A program made the translations under genes and the position numbers. 28,657 nucleotides of DNA. Origin: Escherichia phage ST-T-K. The stretch lies in sequence record OR992647.1. One strand, 5' to 3'. Below, in pieces: positions 2,470-28,657 of this stretch (positions are counted from its first letter, which is position 1; every line of letters starts with the position of its first letter). The notes below the pieces were generated by a model. The model searched no databases, was not told the origin of the DNA, and saw only the letters and a program-made list of their open reading frames with translations.

Positions 2470-4757
2470 AAGACTTAGAACGCCTATTTCTCGACACCGA
2501 GACGTTTAGCGGGGTGGACCTGAAGAAAGCAGGTGCGTATGCCTACGCGGAACACCCCACCACCGAGATTATGATTTGCACCTACGCCATCGACGAGGGC
2601 CGCGTGCAGACATGGGACGCCACTGAATCCCCAACAATGCCGCGTGAACTGCGCAAGGCGCTCCGCCGCGTATCCCGCAAGAAAGCAAAAATAGTGATGG
2701 CTAACGGCCTCCTGTTTGACCGCCTGGTTATCCGTGAAAAGTGGGGTATCGACCTGCCGGTAAGCCAGATCGAAGATACTATGATTATGGCCTTCCGACA
2801 CGCGCTGCCGGGTAGCCTCGATATGCAATGCCAGGTGCTGGGCGTTGACGCAGAGCACGCGAAGGATAAGGCGGGCAAGGCGCTGATCAAACGGTTCTGT
2901 AAGCCTACCCCTAAGACCTACAAAATCCGCCGCTACACCCGCGACACACACCCTGAAGAATGGGCTAAATTCCTGCGCTATGCCGCGCTGGATATTATCG
3001 CAATGCGTGAAGTCTACTGGCGCATACCGGACTGGGGTAACACGCCGAAGGAAGACGAAATCCTGCTTATTGACCAGTTGATTAACGACCGTGGCTTCTA
3101 TGTGGACGTTGACCTGGCTAACGCCGCGATCAAGGCGGTGCAGGTGCATAAAGAGGAATTGAAGGAAGAAGCCTGGGAACTGTTCGGCGGTAAGCTGACC
3201 GGCAATGACTTCCTGCCAATCCTGCGTGATATTGCCCCGGCGTTCACAATTCACAACGCGCAGAAATCCACGCTGAATGACTTGCTGGAAGATCCAGACT
3301 TCCCCGACGAGGGCAAAGTGCTTATTGAGATGCGCCTCGGTGCGTCATCAACGGCATCGACTAAATACAATCCGCTCGTAAACGGTCTTTCTGCCGATGG
3401 TCGCCGCCGTGGTTGTCTTCAGTATGGTGGGGCAAAGCGCACACTACGCTGGGCTGGTAAAGGCTTTCAACCTCAAAACCTGGCACGTGGCGAGTACAGT
3501 GATGACCACGAAGGGAAGATTAAGCGCCGCGAAGGTGAGAGCGACGTCTCGTTTTGGGTACGGTCGCACATGCTCACCAACGGCATCAACTCCCTGTTAC
3601 GCGGGACCGCGCACTGGGCGTATGACATATCGAAGCTGACCGCCTCGACCGTTCGCGGGTGCATTATCCCGGCTAAGGGCAAGAAGTTTGTCGTAGCGGA
3701 CTACTCCAACGTGGAAGGGCGCGGCCTTGCCTGGATCGCAGGCGAGAAAACCGCATTAATGGTGTTTAAGGCCGGACGCGATATCTATTGTGAAACTGCC
3801 GGTAAGATGTTCGGCCTCGACCCGGACTACATTAAAGCCAACCGCAAAGACTTGCGCCAGATTGGTAAGGCGTGTGAATTGGGGCTGGGCTATGGTGGCG
3901 GCGTTGCTGCGTTCTTGCAATTCGCTAAAAACCTGGGCCTCGACCTGTACGCAATGGCTGACGTCATGAAGGGTACATTCCCGGATCACATTTGGGCGGC
4001 GGCGAAGCGAGGCTATGAGTTTGCCCGCATCAACGAAGCGAAGCGACCGCCGAAGCCGGGCAAGAAAGACGAGCGCCCAACCTACATACTGCCTAAAAAT
4101 GTATGGTTGACCTGTGACGCGATTAAACGCATGTGGCGTGAGTCTCACCCGAAGACCGTAGATTTTTGGTCCGAGCTTGAGCACGCGGTGTTAAACGCAA
4201 TACGCAATCCGGGTAAGGCATACTGGGCTGGCGCGAACGTTCGCCCGGATGGTAAGAAAGCGCTCAAAATTGTTCGCACGAAGGCGAAGCATGACCCAAC
4301 CTTCGACGAGGAGCGCGACGACCCGAACGCGGCGGGCTGGTGGCTGAAGGTTGAGTTGCCGTCCGGGCGAATCATGAGCTACCCCGGCATCGCGTTGTCT
4401 GTCACTACCGAGATTGACGAAGACACCGGCAAGAAGCGCACCAGCACTCGCATAAAATACCAGGGCGAGAATCAGACTACGCGCCAGTGGGGATTCCAGT
4501 ACACCTACGGCGGCAAACTGACGGAGAACATCGTACAGGCGTTGTGCCGCGATATCCTCGCATGGTCCATGCCTGGTGTCGAAGCTGCGGGCTATGAAAT
4601 CGTCCTGTCAGTGCATGATGAATTGATCACCGAAGTGCCAGACACAGACGACTACACGACCGAGGAGCTATGCGCGCTGATGTGCGACCTGCCGATATGG
4701 GCGAACGGTTTCCCACTTGCCGCCGAAGGCGACATTATGTACCGGTACAGGAAGTAA
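2466..4757 (+). CDS. DNA polymerase, family A (Pol I-like) with N-terminal 3'-5' exonuclease domain
   Basis: 763 aa. N-terminal Exo I motif DTETFSG; polymerase motif B RQIGKACELGLGYGGG; motif C LSVHDELITEV. Confidence 0.9.
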   Translation: MKDLERLFLDTETFSGVDLKKAGAYAYAEHPTTEIMICTYAIDEGRVQTWDATESPTMPRELRKALRRVSRKKAKIVMANGLLFDRLVIREKWGIDLPVSQIEDTMIMAFRHALPGSLDMQCQVLGVDAEHAKDKAGKALIKRFCKPTPKTYKIRRYTRDTHPEEWAKFLRYAALDIIAMREVYWRIPDWGNTPKEDEILLIDQLINDRGFYVDVDLANAAIKAVQVHKEELKEEAWELFGGKLTGNDFLPILRDIAPAFTIHNAQKSTLNDLLEDPDFPDEGKVLIEMRLGASSTASTKYNPLVNGLSADGRRRGCLQYGGAKRTLRWAGKGFQPQNLARGEYSDDHEGKIKRREGESDVSFWVRSHMLTNGINSLLRGTAHWAYDISKLTASTVRGCIIPAKGKKFVVADYSNVEGRGLAWIAGEKTALMVFKAGRDIYCETAGKMFGLDPDYIKANRKDLRQIGKACELGLGYGGGVAAFLQFAKNLGLDLYAMADVMKGTFPDHIWAAAKRGYEFARINEAKRPPKPGKKDERPTYILPKNVWLTCDAIKRMWRESHPKTVDFWSELEHAVLNAIRNPGKAYWAGANVRPDGKKALKIVRTKAKHDPTFDEERDDPNAAGWWLKVELPSGRIMSYPGIALSVTTEIDEDTGKKRTSTRIKYQGENQTTRQWGFQYTYGGKLTENIVQALCRDILAWSMPGVEAAGYEIVLSVHDELITEVPDTDDYTTEELCALMCDLPIWANGFPLAAEGDIMYRYRK

Positions 4758-10530: not shown

Positions 10531-11106
10531 ATGTACGGCGAATACGAAATAACCGGTAAACAATTCCACATAGCGGCAATGTTGGCGAGCGTCGAGTTTG
10601 ACCAGTGGCGATTAAAGTCTGACGCGTGCAAGCAAAGCCGACTTGTCGGTGTGCTGGGCGAGATGTTTGCGGGCATGTACCTTGAAGGGCAGGCAGGCGG
10701 GCGTAGTTGTATCCCGCAAGGCTTGCTTATGCGTACCGGCCTGTTTAGCGCCAATACTATCGACCGCGGCGATATTATCATGGTCGGTAAACGCAAGGTT
10801 AAGTCCGGCCCCGACTTCCGTGAGCACATGATTGATGCCGTCTGGACCTACGAGGTCAAAGCCACCAGCGGCATCCGTCGCGGACTGGTAGAGGCGCGTT
10901 GCGCTCGCGAGTATCTCACCCGTCGAGTTGCCGGTGTTATCCTGGTGGGCGTATCGTTCGGGCAACATAGCGCACACGGCGTGATTGAGGATATCGCGGA
11001 ACCATACGTGATTGTCAACGACTGGCCGTTGGTGGAAGTAGAAGGTAAGGAGTATTACGAAAGTCCGCTGGTGCGGCGCAAAATGGACTGGGAAAACTCA
11101 AACTAA
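10531..11106 (+). CDS. hypothetical protein (191 aa), possible PD-(D/E)XK-like core
   Basis: ATG at 10531 with GAGGG at 10518-10522; GDIIMVG ... WTYEVKA gives a D ... E-x-K pattern (weak). Confidence 0.55.
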   Translation: MYGEYEITGKQFHIAAMLASVEFDQWRLKSDACKQSRLVGVLGEMFAGMYLEGQAGGRSCIPQGLLMRTGLFSANTIDRGDIIMVGKRKVKSGPDFREHMIDAVWTYEVKATSGIRRGLVEARCAREYLTRRVAGVILVGVSFGQHSAHGVIEDIAEPYVIVNDWPLVEVEGKEYYESPLVRRKMDWENSN

Positions 11107-11132: not shown

Positions 11133-12659
11133 TTACTTACCTTCCAGCTTTTCTACTTTCTGCAACAGGTGAACGAAGGCAGCACACAGGTCCATCAACA
11201 GCACGTTACTGTCAAGCGACAGCACATCGTCGGTGTATCCGATCTCCTTTTGCTCGACAATCTCGTTCCCTTCCTCGTCCACGCCAACAACAACGTCCTC
11301 GTAGATTCCATGCCCTGGCAGCAAGTGCACATATTCTGGATCAATCATGGCCAGGTCCTGCGCGATAAGGCCGTAACGCTGTACGTCCGACTCCTTATAC
11401 TTAAACATTGCTGGTAGCCATTGCCGCACTCGGTTGTAACTTTCCGCGCCGTCCGTGTATTGGATTTCTTTCTTCACGTCCCGGTCTGATAGCGGTGCTT
11501 TCTGAAACTCCGACGACGATGGGTTGCCGCTGTTACCCTGAATCAGACGCCCATCCGGCAGGAAGCGGAATAGCGCCTCAGTTTCCCCATTCTTCCACGC
11601 GTGGATCCGGTAGTCTGAAATATGAGTGTCACCGGCACGAACAAGGCCCGCGCGCGCCCAGTCAGCGTACCACTTGTACATTATTTGCCCGACCCAATTG
11701 TCGATGCCCATCGAGGCGTTTGATAGAATTAAGCCGTTAGCCTCCACGTCATTGAATGTTAATGATTCGCCACCGTTCAGGCGTAATGTTGCGTGTTTAA
11801 CGTTACTGTCATCGCCCACCCCCAAAATGTTGCGCGCGGCGTACTTGTCGGCAACGTCCGCTAGGTTCTGCGACTTCTGCATGAACTTAGTGGGGTCGAT
11901 TGCGTTTTTGAAGTCCTCCGCTTCGTCGCGGTATCCTTGCGCTGCATCGCGGGCCGCTTGTGCGTCAGTCTTCGCCGTGTTGGCCTGATCTCGAATAGCG
12001 CCAGTGTCAGTCTTAATTTGATTAGTCTGGTCCTTGATGGACTGCGTATCTGTCTTAATCTGGTCGGTTTGCGTCTTGATCGTATTGGTGGCGTCGTGGA
12101 TTGCCTGCGTATCGGTCTTAATCTGGTCGGTTTGCGTCTTGATCGTATTAGTATCGTTCTTGAAGCCTTCGGCCTCGTCGCGGTATCCTTTCGCTGCGAC
12201 CTCAGATGCGGAGGCTTGTTGTTGCAGGTTGCGCATTTCCACCGGGTCGATCTGCTTCATTAGCTGCGACAGGTAGCCCCATGACATACCCTGCATTACT
12301 GTGCCGTTCGGTAACGTAACTGTGATTTCTTCAGCGTCGCCGAAGATTGCACGCCAGTTGTTCTCGTCCGCAATAAGCATACGCAGTGCTTTCTGTGCCT
12401 GGACTGTTACGCCCATCGTTGCCAGCGACATGGTATCGCGCGCAACGCCATCCCATGCAAGGCCGGATGCCGTCGGGCCGTCAAACGGCAGCACCAAAGT
12501 AAGCCCGGTGTTGCTTTCGATAGATTCGATCGCGATAGTGTAGGGGACTTGCCCCACTACGACAGAAAGGAAATCACCGGCTTTGAACGCCGAAAACGTC
12601 GTACCGGTCCCCGTTACCGACCGGCTGTTATTGGTTAATAAGATAGTACCCGCTGCCAT
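11133..12659 (-). CDS. tail fiber protein with heptad repeats and C-terminal intramolecular chaperone (peptidase S74) domain
   Basis: 508 aa. Central repeats IKTQTDQ / IKTDTQA (~10 heptads) flanked by YRDEAEGFKN and YRDEAEDFKN, reminiscent of T7 gp17-type fibers. C-terminus SDRDVKKEIQY ... YGLIAQDLAMIDPEYV ... LLQKVEKLEGK matches the endosialidase-chaperone autoprocessing domain. RBS AAGAGGA before ATG. Confidence 0.85.
   Translation of the reverse strand: MAAGTILLTNNSRSVTGTGTTFSAFKAGDFLSVVVGQVPYTIAIESIESNTGLTLVLPFDGPTASGLAWDGVARDTMSLATMGVTVQAQKALRMLIADENNWRAIFGDAEEITVTLPNGTVMQGMSWGYLSQLMKQIDPVEMRNLQQQASASEVAAKGYRDEAEGFKNDTNTIKTQTDQIKTDTQAIHDATNTIKTQTDQIKTDTQSIKDQTNQIKTDTGAIRDQANTAKTDAQAARDAAQGYRDEAEDFKNAIDPTKFMQKSQNLADVADKYAARNILGVGDDSNVKHATLRLNGGESLTFNDVEANGLILSNASMGIDNWVGQIMYKWYADWARAGLVRAGDTHISDYRIHAWKNGETEALFRFLPDGRLIQGNSGNPSSSEFQKAPLSDRDVKKEIQYTDGAESYNRVRQWLPAMFKYKESDVQRYGLIAQDLAMIDPEYVHLLPGHGIYEDVVVGVDEEGNEIVEQKEIGYTDDVLSLDSNVLLMDLCAAFVHLLQKVEKLEGK
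12042..12149 (-). repeat. in-frame tandem repeat within the tail fiber gene
   Basis: 45-bp unit ctgcgtatc(t/g)gtcttaatctggtcggtttgcgtcttgatcgtatt at 12042-12086 and 12105-12149 (one mismatch, 63-bp period), within a run of related heptad-coding units. Confidence 0.65.
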
Positions 12660-12677
12660 AGCTGAATCCTCTTAAAA

Positions 12678-12710
12678 TTGGTTGCATTCTTGATTGAGCG
12701 GTGCAATACT
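12678..12710 (+). promoter_or_regulatory. candidate promoter of the moron (TTGGTTGC element, extended -10)
   Basis: TTGGTTGC at 12678-12685; -35 TTGCAT (12682-12687), 17-nt spacer, TG at 12702-12703, -10 AATACT (12705-12710). Lies in the divergent region between the fiber start and the lipoprotein gene. Confidence 0.4.
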
Positions 12711-12740
12711 AAAACTCAACCAAATATAGGAGATGATAAC

Positions 12741-12962
12741 ATGAAAACTTTAATTATGATTTGTGCGGTCCTTTTGTCCGGTTGTGCTGTAGAACGCAAC
12801 AACGGCGATTGCATTACGGTTGCTTACGGTAGCTGCATGTTACGCTACATTGACGGGCAAAAAGTCCCTGCCGGTGATGTGGACATGCGCTTCACTGGTC
12901 TGTCTGCCGATAGCGACGGCAATTTTTCCGGTACAGTATCAGTTAAATCACGGGAGTGGTAA
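12741..12962 (+). CDS. small lipoprotein, candidate Cor/Llp-like superinfection-exclusion protein
   Basis: ATG at 12741 with AGGAG at 12728-12732; MKTLIMICAVLLSGC has a lipobox (LLSGC) following a signal peptide; 73 aa; sits next to the receptor-binding tail genes. Confidence 0.6.
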   Translation: MKTLIMICAVLLSGCAVERNNGDCITVAYGSCMLRYIDGQKVPAGDVDMRFTGLSADSDGNFSGTVSVKSREW

Positions 12963-12964
12963 TA

Positions 12965-13930
12965 ATGGGCGCTGGAATACTCATCGACTACAACGACGGA
13001 CGACCGATTATGGAGATAACTGCCGGTTTGCGCGCTCCGTCATACTGCACTACGTTTGACCAGCGCTGCCAGTCCGACAAGACGCTGACCATTAATACCC
13101 CGCTAACCCCAGGGTCGGATCTTGTCGTTGCGCTCACGCGCCCGGTAGAAGTGCTTGAGGTGTTCGACCAGACGCTGGTTCTCCCCGACCCGTTCTACGT
13201 GACGTCGGTACAGCGCAACGGGGATAGTGGAATTATCCTTCGAGGCGCGGACGCGCATAACGCATACAGCGGCCTCCCGCAATGGGCGGGTATAATTATG
13301 GAAGTGCTGCCGGTGGGGTCACGCAATGCGGGCTTACTGGTGGCGAACTCGACAGACTTCACCGCGATTTCCAACGTGTCCCGGTTAATGACCTGCCGCT
13401 ACGCGCAGCGCGTGCACGTGAACGGTAGTATGCCTTTGCCTGTGGGCGGTATCCCGTTCGCGCGCTGGGATAATGGCAACGTATCGGTAGGCTTCGATGG
13501 TAGTAGTATCATCGTCCGCAATTCGTCTTATGGCGGGATTGATGACGTCGGGGCCGAAGTGGACTTGGATCTGGTTATCTTCAACAATACGCCGCCATCA
13601 CCGGGGACTGGTATCACCATGACGAACAACCAGGGGCAGGTCACGTTCTCGACCGTTAACAAGCCGTTTGTGCTCAATTCGGTAATTAATATCGGCACCG
13701 GCGGTCAGAATATCGGCAATAGCCTCGTACAGCTTTCATATACCGGCGCGCTCATTGAGAACAACAGCGGCTACAACCACGTTCGAATGAACGGGATACG
13801 CATGGCGGGTAACGTGGTTAGTGCGGCGCGTAATCGCGTAATCGGTAACTACTCACGGCAGCAATTCCAGATGCCTGACCGCAACATAACCGTCCCAACC
13901 CCGTTACTCGTCATACCTAACATGTATTAA
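12965..13930 (+). CDS. hypothetical Gly/Asn/Ser/Val-rich protein (321 aa), co-transcribed with the lipoprotein
   Basis: ATG at 12965 with GGGAG at 12952-12956, 2 nt after the lipoprotein stop; composition suggests a beta-rich fiber-like or surface protein; followed by a terminator. Confidence 0.55.
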   Translation: MGAGILIDYNDGRPIMEITAGLRAPSYCTTFDQRCQSDKTLTINTPLTPGSDLVVALTRPVEVLEVFDQTLVLPDPFYVTSVQRNGDSGIILRGADAHNAYSGLPQWAGIIMEVLPVGSRNAGLLVANSTDFTAISNVSRLMTCRYAQRVHVNGSMPLPVGGIPFARWDNGNVSVGFDGSSIIVRNSSYGGIDDVGAEVDLDLVIFNNTPPSPGTGITMTNNQGQVTFSTVNKPFVLNSVINIGTGGQNIGNSLVQLSYTGALIENNSGYNHVRMNGIRMAGNVVSAARNRVIGNYSRQQFQMPDRNITVPTPLLVIPNMY

Positions 13931-13953
13931 AAAGGGGCCATCCGGCCCCTTCT
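13928..13953. terminator. bidirectional terminator between the moron and J
   Basis: AAAAAG, stem GGGGCC (13934-13939) / GGCCCC (13944-13949), loop ATCC, then TTCTCA; nearly identical to the 11105-11130 terminator. Confidence 0.7.
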
Positions 13954-13956
13954 CAT

Positions 13957-16900
13957 TTACCACGTCCCGACTTTAACCCTTCCCCCTCCAGGTAATGGCA
14001 CGTTGACGCCCGTTGCGTCGATCGTAACGGACCCGCCGGAGAATCCGAAATTACCCGTAGTCGCGAACAAGTTGCCGCGTACCGTTACGTTGTTGAACTC
14101 CGCCCCGCCATCCTTCGCGATACGCCAGCCGCTGTTACCTGGATTCCAGTTATTGGATTGCAGCGTGTCCGTGATCTGCGCGAAGTTAATAGACGCGTTC
14201 TTGATTCGTGCCGTGTCAATATACACCTGCCCGCCGTCAACGATAAACGCGGACGAAAGCGATCCATTAGACGGGTGCATGATATAGAACTGGTCCGCCT
14301 TGAACGCGATGCGGGATTTAACCGCGCCACCTTCCGCCACAACGGAAAGCTGCATACCAGCATCGTAGTACGTCCCGTTATACGTCACGCCAGCTTTAAG
14401 ACTGTAGGTGGCGCTGCCGCCAGCATGGTTAAACGATGACGTCATCTTCTGCTCGATAGCTGCGGACTGCTGACCGAACTGTGCCGCTACCTGGGTCTTA
14501 TACTCCGCCAGCGCGCCCGCTACGTCTGCCGTTGCCGTTTGTACCTGCTGGATGGCAGCTTCCTGTTCCCCGAACTTAGCGGCAACAGTTTGTTGATACT
14601 GGGCGAACGCTTGTTCGTGCGTGCTTTGCGCAGTCTGCAACGTGTGGATTGACGCTTCCGCATCGTCAAGGCGTGTGCCGATCAGCGTTTCCAGTTGCGC
14701 TACGGCCTCGTTTGCGTCCACCGCAACGTTGTACGCCACCTTGATTTCCGCATAAATCCCTTGATACTCGGAGCGGGCGTTGAATAGCTGCTGGGCGTCC
14801 GTTAGCATCGACTCATAGATGCCTTGCGGAATTGTGTCGATTGCTTCCTGGAAGTGTTTACCGTCCTCGGAAGTCAAAAACTCGTCATCAAGCCCCTGCA
14901 TGTACTCGTCAACTTTGTCACTCACCTGTCCGTCAAACGGGTCTGACCAGTCTGACAGGTTGCCGATTTTATCCGCTACACGGGCGCGCAACTGCTGGTA
15001 GATCCCGAACTCCAGCGACGTTTGCGCATAGTCCGACCCCGGATATGGGACGTTGGTCAAGAATCTCCATTCAGTTTCACCCAGCTTGCGCACTTCAAGC
15101 TCGGTATACGAAATATCCGTTGCGGCGTTGTTGTGATTCCACTTCCACAAAATTTGGTGAAGGCCAGAAATCGCGTTGGTGATGATTGGCGCGTTTAGCC
15201 CTCCAAGACGACCCTCGACCGGCGTGATTGCGGATGACACCCACGGGGATGAAATCTCGCCCATACCGATCGCGCGGACGCGTGCCTGGTAGTTACCAGA
15301 AAACACGTTCGGGATGTGCGCGCCGTTCGAGGCCGTGCGGGGAATGTTCACCCAGTCGTTGCCCCACTGGATTTCCAGATTCTGCAAGCTGGTACGTCGC
15401 CACTGGATTTCGTATACAACGGCATCCTTCACCGGTGGGAAAACAATATCCACGTTAGTGATTAGCTGGCCTTGTGATGAAATCTGCGACGGGGTGATGG
15501 TAACGGATTCTGGCCCCTTCATTACGCCGTCCGGCACTTGAGTGAAGATACCTGGATCAAGACGCGCGCCATTATCAACGGCATCATATTTGCTATCGTT
15601 GTACTCAATCCCGCGCACCGAAAAAGTGCTGGTAGCGTCGTCATATTCCAGATCGGTGATGCGGAACTTCTGCAACTGGATATCGTCGCCATCAACGCAA
15701 AACGGCTGATCAGGAATCGGGTCGGCGTCCAGTGCGGTTTTTAGCGTGACCGCGTTGCCGTTGACGCTGGCAATCTCGCGAGTCTCCACATTACCGCTAT
15801 CGGTGCGCACCAGGAATTTGTCCCCAGGGCGGAACGTGATTTCGCTGTCCGTGTTCAGCACGGTGCGCGTGCCCGGATCTGACAACAGGCGTCCGCCGCG
15901 TGTCTCGAATCCGCCAGAAATGTTAGTATCCGCGATTGCGACTACGCTCCCCGGAATAAAGAATAGCCCCTCCATGCCAACCTTGAAGCTAACTTGCTGG
16001 TCAAGCTGGTTGGAGATTAGCGCCCAGTGCCCGCGGCGTTGCGCTTCGGATTCACGCGTACAGCCGATCGCCGTAATATCAAGGCGGTTAATCTTATGGC
16101 GGCGCACCAGTTCGACACGTTGGCCCGTTGCGATGGCATCTTCATAATGGTTCTTCGGGTTGCCGTAGGCTACCGCGAACGTGGAATACCGAGTTTTCTG
16201 GCTTCCTGATGCGTAGTCGAATCGACCATCAATGACCGAGGCGTTTGTGATAGTGTGCGATACCGCTGCGACCGGCTGGTCACTGACGATATTCAACATC
16301 TGGTTGCCCCACCAGGTCATTCCGGCAAAGATAGCCGCTAAATCCTTCAGCACGGTCCATGCGTCGGTCTGCGACTGAATGTACATATCATTCTTAAATC
16401 GGATTTCCTGTCCGCCGTTGCCGTCACTGACTTTCTGATCGCAGCGCTGTGCAATCTGGTAGAGCGCGTACCGGTTTAGCATTTGCGGCTTGACACGACG
16501 ACCAAGGCCGAAGCGCTCAGTAATACAAATATCGTACCAGTGCCACGCAGGGTTATCCGTCCATGCGCGTTTAAATGTGCCATCCCAGTCCCCCGAATAG
16601 GTATGATTAATCGGGTCGTAGTTGTTCGGGACCAGCACCTTGCGGCCTTTGCACTTGATTGACACTCGCGGGATATTCTGGAACGCCTTAGCGTCGAACT
16701 CCACGAACAACAGCGCGGTTAGCGGGTAACGCAGACGGGCGTCGATAATCTCAGTAATGGATTGTACCTGGATATCGTTGACCACTTTTGCCGATGTGGA
16801 ATCAGCCGTTGTGCGGTGCACCTCCACGCGCCAGCCGGTGTTGACGTTCGGCGGTAATTCGATGCGGTGGTCGCGCTCATACAGCGACATTGTTTTACCA

Positions 16901-17403
16901 ACGGCAGCGAATGTAAACTCCCGCGGATCAGCATTATCGGTATACACAACAATTTTATAGTCGATGCGCCCGCCCACCAGATCGCCATTATCTTCGTTGG
17001 TGTACAGGGCAGGAATACCGATTCGAATGCGCACCGCGTCCAGACTGGTATCCGAAATCTGGCGGACCCACGGCTGGCCCTGTTCCAGTTTTACGCCTAC
17101 TGTTTGCTCGCTTTCCACCGCTGAAAAACCGTGAATCACATCCTGGTGCTGCGTGCCGGGGCGGAACTCCACGCGCGCGCCGGGGAAGTTATCCGACAGG
17201 TCGGCGTTCTGGATCGGTGTGCCGTCCAGGTATACACGCTGCCGTAATTCGTTAGGGTCGGGAATGCCTTCAAATTCGCCCTCGCCCAGTGCGAGCAAGA
17301 TGCGGATTTTAGCCAGCGAATGCAGGCTATCAGGCGTCTCCTGTGGGGTGTGCTGTTTGCCTCCGCCGCCTTTATGGCCCGTGACGTCGTATACAATCGT
17401 CAT
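13957..17403 (-). CDS. central tail fiber / host specificity protein, lambda gpJ-like
   Basis: 1148 aa. N-terminus GHKGGGGKQHTPQETPDSL ... VEFRPGTQHQDVIHGF parallels the lambda J N-terminus as recalled. ATGA overlap with the upstream gene. Confidence 0.9.
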   Translation of the reverse strand: MTIVYDVTGHKGGGGKQHTPQETPDSLHSLAKIRILLALGEGEFEGIPDPNELRQRVYLDGTPIQNADLSDNFPGARVEFRPGTQHQDVIHGFSAVESEQTVGVKLEQGQPWVRQISDTSLDAVRIRIGIPALYTNEDNGDLVGGRIDYKIVVYTDNADPREFTFAAVGKTMSLYERDHRIELPPNVNTGWRVEVHRTTADSTSAKVVNDIQVQSITEIIDARLRYPLTALLFVEFDAKAFQNIPRVSIKCKGRKVLVPNNYDPINHTYSGDWDGTFKRAWTDNPAWHWYDICITERFGLGRRVKPQMLNRYALYQIAQRCDQKVSDGNGGQEIRFKNDMYIQSQTDAWTVLKDLAAIFAGMTWWGNQMLNIVSDQPVAAVSHTITNASVIDGRFDYASGSQKTRYSTFAVAYGNPKNHYEDAIATGQRVELVRRHKINRLDITAIGCTRESEAQRRGHWALISNQLDQQVSFKVGMEGLFFIPGSVVAIADTNISGGFETRGGRLLSDPGTRTVLNTDSEITFRPGDKFLVRTDSGNVETREIASVNGNAVTLKTALDADPIPDQPFCVDGDDIQLQKFRITDLEYDDATSTFSVRGIEYNDSKYDAVDNGARLDPGIFTQVPDGVMKGPESVTITPSQISSQGQLITNVDIVFPPVKDAVVYEIQWRRTSLQNLEIQWGNDWVNIPRTASNGAHIPNVFSGNYQARVRAIGMGEISSPWVSSAITPVEGRLGGLNAPIITNAISGLHQILWKWNHNNAATDISYTELEVRKLGETEWRFLTNVPYPGSDYAQTSLEFGIYQQLRARVADKIGNLSDWSDPFDGQVSDKVDEYMQGLDDEFLTSEDGKHFQEAIDTIPQGIYESMLTDAQQLFNARSEYQGIYAEIKVAYNVAVDANEAVAQLETLIGTRLDDAEASIHTLQTAQSTHEQAFAQYQQTVAAKFGEQEAAIQQVQTATADVAGALAEYKTQVAAQFGQQSAAIEQKMTSSFNHAGGSATYSLKAGVTYNGTYYDAGMQLSVVAEGGAVKSRIAFKADQFYIMHPSNGSLSSAFIVDGGQVYIDTARIKNASINFAQITDTLQSNNWNPGNSGWRIAKDGGAEFNNVTVRGNLFATTGNFGFSGGSVTIDATGVNVPLPGGGRVKVGTW

Positions 17404-26767: not shown

Positions 26768-27868
26768 TTAAGACGCGCTGGTCGGAGTCAGCGTAACCAG
26801 TACGCCAGCCGTTTCCTTGATGTTACGGGTCGGCACGGCCTGTGCTGCCTGGGTCTTGCGACGGCCTTTAGTATCGCCATCACCCACCGCGCCAACGTCC
26901 TGCACGGTCGCAGGTGCGTTGTCTACCTGGCCCTGGTCCAGTTCCCAGTTGTCCTTAGTGGTGATATCCGCCAGCGTGAACGAACGTACACCTTCAACCG
27001 GAGTACGAGCGGACGCCTTCAGACGGTAGCCTTTAACAGCCACGTTGAAGTCGAACTCACCCTGCCACCAGCGCTCGATGTTCTCGTTACCGCCTTTTTC
27101 CTGCGCCAGCATATCGAGGCCGTTGGTGGTAACTGCAACCGCGCCAGGGACCAGACCCAGCATTTTTCCCGCGCCCATAGCATCGGCAGCGGCATCGGAG
27201 ATAATGAAACGACGGCCCAGGCCATCACCCATTACTTGCAGATCGCCGATCGCGAATACCTGCTCCGCGGAAGGAAGCGCCTGATAGGCAATGAAGTTAG
27301 CCCAGGTAACGCCATCCATAAACCAGGACTTAATCAAAGACGCCTGATCGCCGAACTTAGAAGCCGCCAGCGGGAAGTCTGCCAGGGTCGGGAAGGTTCG
27401 ACCGCCAACGCCATCTACGCGCGCCGGTTGGGTGTATGCTGCCGCTGCGTTGCTCTCGATCGCCGCTTTACTTGCGCCAATACCGGCCTTCAGGTAATGC
27501 AGCATAATCGCTTGAGTAGCCTGTGCCGCAATCTCAGCCGCAACGCTGTTAACGTTGGTTTCGATCTTAGCCATCATAGCCTTAGTGATTGCTACCGGAC
27601 CCACTTTCGCGGAGAGGTTAACCGAGTTGGTCAGCATACGCGCCAGCACTTTAGCGGTTGCCGGTGTGCCAACAGGCGCATATGCGTTGCGGTCAGTAAC
27701 GAGGTTGGCGATCAAGCCGACGGACATTTTTTCTACAACGTCCTTCAGCACTTCACCTGTACCGAGAACAACAGCACCATTAGCGGCAGCGTTGAACACG
27801 TTCAGGTTGTCGGGGATCATTTGCGTAACCGCGGTAACGAGTTTACGCTGGAACACTGTTAAAGACAT
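26768..27868 (-). CDS. major capsid protein
   Basis: 366 aa, Ala/Val/Gly/Thr-rich; RBS AAAGGA 7 nt before ATG at 27868; lies between scaffold and connector genes; followed by a terminator. The overlapping plus-strand ORF is Arg/Cys-rich and was rejected. Confidence 0.7.
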   Translation of the reverse strand: MSLTVFQRKLVTAVTQMIPDNLNVFNAAANGAVVLGTGEVLKDVVEKMSVGLIANLVTDRNAYAPVGTPATAKVLARMLTNSVNLSAKVGPVAITKAMMAKIETNVNSVAAEIAAQATQAIMLHYLKAGIGASKAAIESNAAAAYTQPARVDGVGGRTFPTLADFPLAASKFGDQASLIKSWFMDGVTWANFIAYQALPSAEQVFAIGDLQVMGDGLGRRFIISDAAADAMGAGKMLGLVPGAVAVTTNGLDMLAQEKGGNENIERWWQGEFDFNVAVKGYRLKASARTPVEGVRSFTLADITTKDNWELDQGQVDNAPATVQDVGAVGDGDTKGRRKTQAAQAVPTRNIKETAGVLVTLTPTSAS

Positions 27869-27935
27869 ATCGAAATCCTTTGAGTTGTGAGCATTCGCCC
27901 AGTGACGTTAATGTTACCTTAGATTTACGCGCTCG

Positions 27936-27959
27936 CAAAATCGCCCGCTTTCGCGGGCG
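27936..27959 (-). terminator. hairpin / partial terminator between scaffold and capsid genes
   Basis: On the minus strand, stem CGCCCGC / GCGGGCG with GAAA loop, followed by ATTTTG. Confidence 0.45.
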
Positions 27960-27965
27960 GTCTGC

Positions 27966-28628
27966 TTACTCGTCGTCGCCCATCTTAGCGATGATATCCC
28001 CTGCCTGTTTCGTCAGGTCTGTGATACCGAAGCTATGGCCCATCGTGATTTTAGACTTCGCATCTTCGATAACCTGTGTCGGTTTGCTCGGAGCGCCACC
28101 GGCTGGCGTGCCCGCCAGGACGGATGCAAAATCAGCGTTATTACGGAACTCTTTTTCAAGCTCGTCCATAGTCAGAGCGGACGGTTTGCCATCCTGCAAG
28201 ACACGCACCTTCAAGCTGCCGTCTTCGCCGTCTTCCAGCGCGAGGCGCTCCATTACGTGGCGTTGCATGATGCCAGCATTCTTACCAAATAGCTTCGATG
28301 CCAGGTCTTTGGCAGCGCTGCCGATAGTAAGGTCGTGGATCTGCTTGCGATAGGATTCGATTTTCCCCGATGTGTCAGCTTCGTGTTTTGCCAACTTATC
28401 CTTCCAGGATTTATCGATCGCTTCGAGGTCGCCATTTTTGCGCGCGGCGGCTTCCTCTTTCTCTTTCGCAAGGCGCTCGGCTTCGGCGCGGCGTTCAGCT
28501 TCTGCCTTCTTCTCGCTCACCAGCTTTGCGTTGTTGTCTTTCAGACCCTTGATTTCCGCCTGTACTTCTTCAGCGGACATAAATGTTGCTTTATACCCGT
28601 CACCATCGGCAACAAAAAGCGCCTTCAT
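27966..28628 (-). CDS. scaffolding protein (start uncertain; frame stays open to the window end)
   Basis: Highly charged, Ala/Glu/Lys-rich predicted coiled-coil protein immediately upstream of the capsid gene. ATG at 28628, but there is no in-frame stop between it and the window edge. Confidence 0.55.
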   Translation of the reverse strand: MKALFVADGDGYKATFMSAEEVQAEIKGLKDNNAKLVSEKKAEAERRAEAERLAKEKEEAAARKNGDLEAIDKSWKDKLAKHEADTSGKIESYRKQIHDLTIGSAAKDLASKLFGKNAGIMQRHVMERLALEDGEDGSLKVRVLQDGKPSALTMDELEKEFRNNADFASVLAGTPAGGAPSKPTQVIEDAKSKITMGHSFGITDLTKQAGDIIAKMGDDE

Positions 28629-28657
28629 ACCTTCCGGCAACGCGTCATATTCTGCTT

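Follow-up and report, generated by a model that had tools for sequence, protein, structure and literature searches.

The two plus-strand genes located between the tail-tip gene J and the lateral tail fibre gene of Escherichia phage ST-T-K (sequence record OR992647.1) are both already known, and form the published LptD host-recognition cassette of Dhillonvirus coliphages. We analyzed a 28,657-nt stretch of this record (the window), the whole of which is Dhillonvirus DNA with 95% identity to phage vB_EcoS-101114BS4. We are highly confident that the phage is a virulent Dhillonvirus coliphage and that the two-gene unit is its host-recognition cassette. The unit very probably corresponds to a known pair, a terminal receptor-binding protein (RBP) that binds LptD and its cognate exclusion lipoprotein.

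The layout of the locus was as the original prediction had described it. The ORFs bore out two plus-strand genes running against the tail operon between J and the fibre gene, in the same orientation and flanked on both sides by minus-strand tail genes (Table 1). The stop codon of the first gene is separated from the start codon of the second by 2 nt. The RBP gene (stop at 13930) and J (stop at 13957) converge, with 26 nt between their stop codons, while the lateral tail fibre gene, whose product ends in an S74 intramolecular-chaperone domain, and the cassette are transcribed divergently. The J-like protein, presumed to be the carrier of the RBP, was found to be 94.7% identical to Oekolampad gp24, a "J-like tail tip protein". 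Rfam, tRNA, and tandem-repeat scans gave no match in or near the locus. Searches of NCBIfam and PADLOC matched neither cassette protein, indicating that neither is a catalogued component of a defence system.

Table 1 Features of the cassette and its flanks in the window.
Feature	Position	Strand	Basis or remark
Lateral tail fibre gene, 508 aa	11133..12659	-	phrog_1980 E 6e-117; PF13884
Candidate sigma-70-like promoter, weak	12682..12710	+	TTGCAT, 17 nt, TGcAATACT (extended -10)
Shine-Dalgarno sequence AGGAGA	12728..12733	+	Ends 7 nt before the lipoprotein ATG; conserved in relatives
Gene for Rtp45-family lipoprotein (putative superinfection exclusion), 73 aa	12741..12962	+	PF24052 E 6.9e-21; phrog_4281 E 1.1e-32
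Gene for predicted terminal receptor-binding protein, 321 aa, Pfam DUF6453	12965..13930	+	PF20051 E 2.7e-118
Hairpin AAGGGGCC-ATCC-GGCCCCTT	13932..13951	.	Folding; sits between the RBP-gene and J stop codons
Last ~38 J codons, travelling with the cassette	13957..14072	-	blastn breakpoints and drop in J identity versus HK578
J-like central tail-tip protein gene, 1148 aa	13957..17403	-	PF24801, PF09327, PF13550; phrog_31

The second gene runs from an ATG to a TAA codon and is preceded by GGGAG at 12952-12956. In a PDB sequence search its product matched 9rpt_C, the RBP of phage Oekolampad (Bas18) on LptDE, over residues 1-321 (E 1.4e-182). The two proteins are identical at 273 of 321 positions (85.0%) without gaps, which identifies the 321-aa protein as the terminal RBP rather than the new exclusion partner or receptor-binding accessory that had been proposed. 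The accompanying proposal that the locus is a host-range determinant was borne out. A cryo-EM structure shows RBP_Oeko on the open LptDE translocon (PDB 9RPT), and both its binding and infection by Oekolampad are lost with the LptD point mutants Y671N and D352Y (PMC12685063). Gln299 of RBP_Oeko, which contacts LptD Ser350 (PMC12685063), is kept in the RBP of the window and was the only published contact residue that could be checked. The DUF6453 model scored the RBP at 395 bits (cut-off 25), RBP_Oeko at 405, the HK578 allele at 412, and the Klebsiella allele at 286. LptD is also the mapped receptor for more distant alleles. The RBP of VogelGryff is 62% identical, and host mutants resistant to that phage map to lptD. 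The HK578 allele is 36% identical and of the Rtp44/Rtp45-like type found in AugustePiccard, a type that has also been mapped to lptD. By homology, the RBP allele of the window is predicted to bind LptD.

We inferred the fold of the RBP solely from its identity to the solved chain, as a single-sequence AF2 model (pLDDT 28.9, pTM 0.19) was unusable. The RBPs of this family, that of Oekolampad included, have been modelled as compact double beta-sandwiches (Black et al. 2025), so the earlier description "fibre-like" is not apt. The richness in Gly, Asn, and Ser that had been noted is only mild (G 10.3%, V 10.0%, N 9.0%, S 7.5%). The database label "membrane protein" was rejected, since no hydrophobic segment was found in the RBP (maximum KD19 1.23). 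In an alignment of 11 alleles, an N-terminal motif (GIxIDxNDG..M.ITAG.R) and a C-terminal motif (P.xY) were kept even in alleles with ~30% identity. The RBP of the window carries the conserved N-terminal segment and a C-terminal PNMY; the conserved residues have been placed at the tail-proximal base of the RBP (Black et al. 2025).

The first gene starts at ATG 12741, behind the Shine-Dalgarno sequence, and the resulting 73-aa product is annotated in all relatives. The start given originally, at 12678, is not the real one; it is a TTG from which a 94-aa ORF was called mechanically. The original prediction of a lipobox lipoprotein of the size of Cor or Llp was confirmed. The predicted signal peptide comprises codons 1-14 (12741-12782), followed by the lipidated Cys15 (codon 12783-12785), with an n-region MKT, a hydrophobic core LIMICAVLL, and a lipobox L-S-G-C that includes Cys15. 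The signal reads MKTLIMICAVLLSG, then C-A, and the Ala at +2 is not an inner-membrane retention residue. The signal was judged by pattern fit; of all ORFs with a Met start and 50 aa or more in the six frames of the whole window (321 in total), this gene alone fitted the pattern. The mature lipoprotein has 59 aa and contains Cys24 and Cys32.

The lipoprotein scored 74.4 bits against PF24052 (Phage_lipoprotein; gathering cut-off 27), the family into which Rtp45 itself also falls. A PDB sequence search matched it to 9rps_D (Rtp45, E 2.8e-8), and Cys24 and Cys32 align with the disulphide cysteines Cys30-Cys38 of Rtp45. It is identical at 71 of 73 positions (97.3%) to Oekolampad gp26, which is SE_Oeko (bas18_0026), the sequence of which is printed in SI Fig. 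S5 of PMC12685063. In its solved structure, Rtp45 sits on the periplasmic side of LptDE (PDB 9RPS). This homology to Rtp45 and SE_Oeko supports the proposal that the lipoprotein would block the phage's own receptor, and the analogy suggests that this receptor is LptD rather than FhuA. The exclusion phenotype is thus a putative one. Rtp45, whose structure underlies the exclusion mechanism in the publications consulted, shares only 35% identity with the lipoprotein of the window, SE_Oeko resisted expression in the hands of the authors who described it, and we found no plating assay of exclusion for Rtp45 or SE_Oeko in those publications.

The proposed homology to Cor or Llp did not hold. Phrog_1119, named Cor superinfection exclusion protein, covers only residues 1-30 of the lipoprotein, which is the signal peptide (E 6.5e-4). 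The PDB search at E<=10 had Rtp45 first and no chain named Llp, where we assumed that Llp is present in the PDB, and PF24052 was the only Pfam match. By analogy, the 73-aa lipoprotein probably works like Cor or Llp without being a member of either family. It is hardly credible that the lipoprotein is instead a lysis protein of the u-spanin type. A homologue in vB_EcoS_Chapo is annotated "u-spanin" and spanins are also small lipoproteins, but the protein has no C-terminal transmembrane segment (the last 20 residues have a mean hydropathy of -0.6), its gene lies outside any lysis cassette, and its homologue Rtp45 was solved on LptDE.

The two genes had also been predicted to have a promoter-like element of their own and a terminator. 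A hairpin downstream of the RBP gene was borne out by folding; the promoter is weak and was missed by the consensus scan. The candidate promoter consists of TTGCAT at 12682-12687 and a -10 hexamer at 12705-12710, with only 3/6 and 4/6 matches to the consensus, respectively. It is conserved in Oekolampad and HK578, inside an intergenic region with 91% identity. A consensus promoter and terminator scan of 12400-14200 called neither the candidate promoter nor the intergenic hairpin, and its total matches were at chance level. The promoter and the expression timing of the cassette are putative. The hairpin is GC-rich; its folding energies are -15.7 kcal/mol (z -3.4) for the plus and -20.0 kcal/mol (z -4.5) for the minus strand. 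A U-run (UUUUU) follows it on the minus strand only, so that it suits termination of J at least as well as that of the cassette. It is likely a bidirectional intrinsic terminator, although the location of its U-tract, in the transcript of the minus strand, favours J over the cassette. In HK578 the same place is taken by a hairpin that differs in sequence, and the depositors of WFI and Rogue1 annotated a terminator at the equivalent position. Another terminator-like site, at 12905-12921 inside the lipoprotein gene, was dropped, its fold being no more stable than that of shuffled controls (z -1.1).

The lipoprotein and RBP genes probably share one transcript, which would run against the tail operon. 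A single transcript for both genes is hard to square with an early action of the lipoprotein. The receptor block could be the same and yet have another main payoff, namely that newly released virions are spared inactivation by LptD in the debris of lysed cells, rather than early superinfection exclusion. For T5 Llp, protection from inactivation by debris has already been put forward. With the lipoprotein gene ending only 2 nt before the RBP gene, and a one-base overlap of the annotated genes in HK578 and Rogue1, both proteins are likely made from one transcript, simultaneously; a PNAS paper gives both benefits for SE factors. On the other hand, protection from debris is compatible with true superinfection exclusion, and the candidate promoter is sigma-70-like and could fire early. 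We regard debris protection as the main payoff as a possibility that merits attention, though not the favoured one.

Gene order and orientation were found to be identical in eight relatives (Oekolampad, HK578, WF5505, EK99P-1, WFI, SO-1, ULIM2, and Rogue1). The two-gene unit was observed at the same position in every Dhillonvirus relative examined, as well as in ULIM2 and Rogue1 of the Drexlerviridae. Searching the cassette DNA against 5,426 complete E. coli genomes, we found no similar DNA, which argues against a prophage moron. In Klebsiella Webervirus, a homologous 318-aa gene lies directly after J on the same strand. The cassette is the "RBP locus" that Maffei et al. (2021) described downstream of gpJ.

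These results bear on the original reading of the locus as a moron, that is, a dispensable, independently transcribed accessory unit of a Cor- or Llp-type lipoprotein and a novel non-structural exclusion partner or receptor-binding helper. The genes are oriented opposite to the tail genes and flanked by a hairpin, other phages carry cor and lom at this site between J and the fibre gene, and PHROGs lists the 321-aa family as "membrane protein" under "moron, auxiliary metabolic gene and host takeover". We nevertheless consider this reading highly improbable. The constant site in the relatives, the absence from E. coli genomes, and the co-oriented Webervirus homologue all speak against it, as do the close identity of the 321-aa protein to a demonstrated receptor binder, its lack of a hydrophobic segment, and the restriction of the Cor match to the signal peptide. 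The term moron is thus not retained for a unit in which one gene encodes the RBP.

The host-recognition cassette appears to be a modular unit. In a blastn comparison with HK578, which carries another LptD allele, DNA homology breaks between 12755 and 14072. The gap spans the mature lipoprotein, the RBP, the terminator, and the J C-terminus. Consistent with this, the identity of J to that of HK578 is 0.60 in residues 1101-1148 and 0.82-1.00 in the other 50-residue blocks. These sequence comparisons indicate that the cassette is horizontally exchanged among small siphophages together with the last ~38 J codons.

The RBP gene showed signs of both constraint and exchange. Compared with Oekolampad, its dN/dS is about 0.09, which indicates purifying selection. 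Its dS (1.10) is roughly double the values of the lipoprotein and J genes on either side (0.45-0.50), suggesting that the allele is older or has recombined. The 48 positions at which the protein departs from RBP_Oeko include clusters at 237-240, 246-247, 284-289, and 305-309 and are enriched at family-variable positions (Mann-Whitney p 4e-9), so the fine specificity for the LptD loops could differ. The clusters are partly common to EK99P-1 and WF5505, and intragenic recombination between RBP sub-alleles is evident, for example in EK99P-1. Such substitutions and recombination could also mean that the RBP allele, while unchanged in fold and architecture, now recognizes a different outer-membrane receptor or the LptD variant of another host. 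This is very unlikely in our view, given the purifying selection, the 97% conservation of the partner lipoprotein, and the mapping to LptD of phages whose family members share only about 36-62% identity. In addition, the BASEL authors predict LptD as the target of Bas83 and Bas85, two phages with ~85% identity to the window in their cassette DNA.

A more speculative idea, which we hold to be rather unlikely, is that the sub-allele changes which the RBP has in common with EK99P-1 and WF5505 (237-240, 246-247, and 284-289) might alter contacts with the LptD loops, and that the lipoprotein-RBP operon might couple receptor blocking to RBP production. If true, the altered contacts could allow escape from some LptD resistance mutations or a wider host range. 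The idea of a coupling device rests on the tight operon with the lipoprotein gene first, its orientation against the tail genes, and the hairpin shared with J.

In the mechanism that we propose for the LptD-binding pair, the RBP would be made in the cytoplasm without a signal peptide and would presumably be joined, by non-covalent contacts, to the distal tip of the central fibre formed by the J-like protein. This putative docking on J would occur through the conserved N- and C-terminal segments of the RBP. By analogy with Oekolampad, to which LptD mutations confer resistance, the other end would bind the extracellular loops of LptD (for RBP_Oeko, EL3-5 and EL11) and enter the lumen of the LptDE lipopolysaccharide translocon in its open state, and binding would commit the phage to DNA ejection. 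The lipoprotein would be exported and lipidated at Cys15; as the Ala at +2 provides no inner-membrane retention signal, its destination would be the outer membrane, in the inner leaflet. There it may bind the periplasmic side of LptD and displace loop EL4 outward, by analogy with Rtp45, so that docking of the RBP would be prevented. Infected cells would then be shielded from superinfection, and progeny would not be wasted on cell debris. The hairpin terminator, shared with J, would separate the cassette from J.

The analysis provides an in silico assignment of LptD as the phage's terminal receptor and explains the odd orientation of the genes. It also reveals that public annotation trails the literature, since the RBP family still appears as DUF6453, "membrane protein", or "hypothetical protein" and under the moron and auxiliary category of PHROGs. 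A reader working from sequence alone can therefore easily call the RBP family novel. LptD is an essential, conserved outer-membrane target, which gives pairs of an LptD-targeting RBP and an exclusion protein applied interest, a case already made in published work.

We compared the cassette with known systems. It shares its position downstream of J with lambda-type J-stf morons such as lom. It differs from them in that it is found in virulent phages, encodes an RBP, and is present in all relatives examined, with no similar DNA found in complete E. coli genomes. The Cor lipoproteins of T1, phi80, N15, and HK022, which mediate FhuA exclusion, are of similar size, are likewise lipoproteins, and are encoded beside J or tail-fibre genes. 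They differ in that their receptor is other than LptD, and the similarity is confined to the signal peptide and lipobox. In T5, pb5 (oad) and Llp offer an alike arrangement, with an RBP on the central fibre and an adjacent small, periplasm-facing outer-membrane lipoprotein that inactivates the same receptor. The receptor of the T5 pair is FhuA, compared with LptD for the cassette, and no sequence relationship was detected in Pfam and PDB sequence searches. Llp acts by long-range allostery, while Rtp45 acts by steric displacement of EL4.

The rtp44/rtp45 pair of Rtp (Drexlerviridae) belongs to the same two families, DUF6453 and PF24052. It is also located downstream of J with the lipoprotein gene first, uses LptD as the receptor, and has the conserved disulphide cysteines. 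The corresponding locus DNA of AugustePiccard is ~93% identical to that of Rtp (Maffei et al. 2021). The alleles of HK578 and Rogue1 are annotated as similar to rtp44/rtp45, and their two genes overlap by one base, whereas those of the window are 2 nt apart. The HK578 version shows about 36% (RBP) and 43% (lipoprotein) identity to the window. The RBP locus of Oekolampad (gp25 and gp26), with RBP_Oeko structures in PDB 9RPT, 9RPW, and 9RQI, differs from the window in the RBP substitutions described above, in a lateral fibre with only ~58% identity (285 of 491 aligned residues), and in the terminator loop, which is GGAT instead of ATCC. Its gene order, orientation, protein lengths (321 and 73 aa), flanking genes, and Pfam families are those of the window.

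We found two plus-strand ORFs flanked by two minus-strand genes, one for the J-like tail-tip protein and one for the lateral tail fibre, at the site where the original prediction had placed a moron with its own promoter and terminator, encoding a lipoprotein and a possible new exclusion partner or accessory protein. Replication genes occupy the plus strand as far as 11106, and the minus strand carries the head and tail genes. Mechanical listing starts the first ORF at TTG 12678; the ORF is real, but a Shine-Dalgarno sequence and all annotated relatives support ATG 12741 as the start, giving 73 aa. This protein carries a classical lipoprotein signal: MKT is followed by LIMICAVLL and the lipobox LSG/C15, with Ala at +2. 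Alone among 321 ORFs (Met-started, at least 50 aa, six frames), it matched a simple lipoprotein-signal pattern, in line with the predicted lipobox. The second gene starts 2 nt past the lipoprotein stop codon, with GGGAG 8 nt upstream. Its 321-aa product (G 10.3%, V 10.0%, N 9.0%, S 7.5%) lacks both a signal peptide and any hydrophobic segment (19-residue hydropathy peaks at 1.23). NCBIfam and PADLOC searches gave no match for either protein, and scans for Rfam families, tRNAs and tandem repeats found nothing at or around the locus.

Features of the two-gene cassette and its flanks
Feature	Coordinates	Strand	Details
Lateral tail-fibre gene	11133-12659	-	508 aa
Candidate promoter	12682-12710	+	TTGCAT-17-TGcAATACT; intergenic region 91% identical, element conserved
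Shine-Dalgarno of lipoprotein gene	12728-12733	+	AGGAGA
Lipoprotein gene	12741-12962	+	73 aa
RBP gene	12965-13930	+	ATG to TAA; 321 aa
GC-rich hairpin	13932-13951	both	occupies most of the 26-nt gap between convergent stop codons
J-like tail-tip gene	13957-17403	-	1148 aa

The 321-aa protein matched Pfam DUF6453 (395 bits) and phrog_1265, and its sole match among all PDB chains was 9rpt_C (E 1.4e-182, residues 1-321 to 1-321), the receptor-binding protein (RBP) of Oekolampad (Bas18, Dhillonvirus), solved by cryo-EM inserted in the open-state LPS translocon LptDE (PMC12685063). The two proteins are identical at 273 of 321 residues, without gaps. The Oekolampad protein, RBP_Oeko, was shown to bind the LptD extracellular loops EL3-5 and EL11 and to insert into the barrel, and the point mutations Y671N and D352Y in LptD eliminate both in vitro binding and infection (PMC12685063). 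By analogy, we infer that the allele in the window binds LptD. Gln299, the only RBP_Oeko contact residue that the paper identifies in its main text (PMC12685063), is conserved. VogelGryff, with a family member of 62% identity, has been mapped to LptD, as have phages carrying the Rtp44-like type seen in AugustePiccard, to which the HK578 allele (about 36% identity) belongs. The N-terminal ~25 residues and a C-terminal PNMY are kept even in alleles of only ~30% identity; Black et al. 2025 described a double beta-sandwich with conserved residues at the tail-proximal base and variable loops at the receptor-binding tip. Single-sequence AF2 gave no usable RBP model. Public labels of the family are outdated ('DUF6453', 'membrane protein', PHROG category 'moron'), and the hosts given for some cassette or protein matches are implausible (Acinetobacter phage NJ01, Campylobacter phages A131 and A121).

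The lipoprotein matched Pfam PF24052 and is identical at 71 of 73 residues to Oekolampad gp26, which is the superinfection-exclusion lipoprotein SE_Oeko (bas18_0026; sequence in SI Fig. S5, PMC12685063). It also aligned at both disulphide cysteines with PDB 9rps_D (E 2.8e-8), which is Rtp45, the phage Rtp lipoprotein whose structure shows it bound to LptDE at the periplasmic face. Expression of SE_Oeko was not achieved by the authors of the structure paper, and the literature searched yielded no plating assay of exclusion by the Rtp45/SE_Oeko type. Membership of the Cor and Llp families was rejected: the PHROG Cor family covers only residues 1-30, the signal peptide, and the PDB search gave no chain named Llp. 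One database homologue is labelled 'u-spanin'. The prediction was right in proposing an exclusion lipoprotein and a host-range locus, but its 'novel partner' is a characterised LptD-binding RBP type, and the whole two-gene module is already published.

The Rtp45 family of lipoproteins (PF24052) extends to phiEco32-like podophages (33-41% identity to that of the window; 124 bits to the Pfam model). The phiEco32 gene, phi32_106 (3968-4249 in locus L012), is a single gene adjoining tRNA-Arg in a group of small and presumably early genes, and DUF6453 genes are absent from its surroundings; other Kuravirus-like records also matched. The phiEco32 lipoprotein could block LptD as an orphan factor against competing siphophages; alternatively, it could hint that phiEco32-like podophages also use LptD.

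The moron reading was rejected. All relatives examined have the cassette at this site, the RBP is one of its two products, no cassette-like DNA was found among 5,426 complete E. coli genomes, and the Webervirus homologue is co-oriented directly after J. The predicted promoter was the weakest point: the element is conserved, but its hexamers match the consensus at 3/6 and 4/6 positions and it was not called by a consensus scan, whose overall number of matches was at chance level. As for a terminator, the hairpin folds on the plus (-15.7 kcal/mol, z -3.4) and minus strands (-20.0 kcal/mol, z -4.5); a five-U run follows it on the minus-strand transcript only, so it resembles a J terminator at least as much as one of the cassette. 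At the equivalent place, HK578 carries a hairpin that differs in sequence, and the deposited WFI and Rogue1 records have terminators annotated. The stems are the same in the window and Oekolampad, and the 4-nt loop ATCC (13940-13943) is replaced by its reverse complement GGAT (~7200-7203 in L001, the Oekolampad locus), a difference that resembles an inversion of the palindromic hairpin.

Over its first 25 kb, the window shares 95.2% identity with Escherichia phage vB_EcoS-101114BS4 and about 89-95% with the other best-matching Dhillonvirus genomes; the cassette by itself is 98.1% identical to those of WF5505 and 101114BS4. DNA homology with HK578, which has an Rtp44/45-type LptD allele, ends at 12755 and starts again at 14073, and J identity drops to 0.60 over residues 1101-1148. 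These breakpoints point to an exchangeable unit made up of the mature lipoprotein, the RBP, the terminator and the final ~38 J codons. The Oekolampad-type allele is itself mosaic (window 12965-13930 against loci L001 and L003-L006): the EK99P-1 RBP is Oekolampad-like to about residue 200 and then window-like. Compared with WF5505, the RBP gene is almost unchanged (dS 0.035), whereas dS reaches 0.23 in the lipoprotein gene. The RBP dN/dS of about 0.09 indicates purifying selection, and the 48 differences from RBP_Oeko are enriched at family-variable positions (p 4e-9); some of them are clustered and may alter how finely the protein discriminates among LptD variants or loops.

The lateral tail fibre is a second variable host-range locus, with only ~58% identity to that of Oekolampad. 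It has a conserved N-terminus, central near-repeated TNTIKTQTDQIKTDTQ motifs, in a stretch that also weakly matches coiled-coil families, and, at the C-terminus, an S74 intramolecular-chaperone domain; no DNA tandem repeats at or above the TRF threshold were found in its gene. The final plus-strand gene ahead of it (10531-11106) encodes a conserved uncharacterised protein (191 aa; phrog_10558, E 2e-118; no match in Pfam, NCBIfam or PADLOC), and Oekolampad and HK578 have an equal-length gene annotated at this position.

Oekolampad has exactly the layout of the window (lateral fibre, lipoprotein, RBP and J, with the middle two genes inverted), which is shared by HK578, WF5505, EK99P-1, WFI and SO-1, and by the Drexlerviridae phages ULIM2 and Rogue1. 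Maffei et al. (2021) found RBP loci to be common to, and exchanged among, small siphophages and to predict the receptor; the BASEL follow-up predicted LptD for Bas83-85, and the cassettes of Bas83 and Bas85 share ~85% DNA identity with that of the window. In the Webervirus Klebsiella phage vB_KpnS-K7 (L010 1-2457), J and the DUF6453 gene downstream of it share a strand and lie 1 nt apart, and the lipoprotein homologue is about 10 kb away (38245-38469 versus 27686-28639 in the record), so this RBP family is not always encoded in an inverted two-gene operon. In the Seuratvirus VogelGryff (L008 1376-1501), 125 nt separate the lateral fibre and RBP genes, an interval with no annotated lipoprotein; the adjacent exclusion gene may be missing from this LptD-dependent phage or located elsewhere in it.

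By analogy with RBP_Oeko, the RBP, presumably seated on the J tip, would bind LptD loops EL3-5 and EL11 and enter the barrel. The lipoprotein should be lipidated and then sorted to the outer membrane, where, like Rtp45, it would bind LptD from the periplasm and displace EL4 outward, preventing RBP docking. The close functional analogy, drawn by the authors of the structures themselves, is the T5 pb5/Llp pair, from which, according to them, this lipoprotein type differs in acting by a steric rather than an allosteric mechanism.
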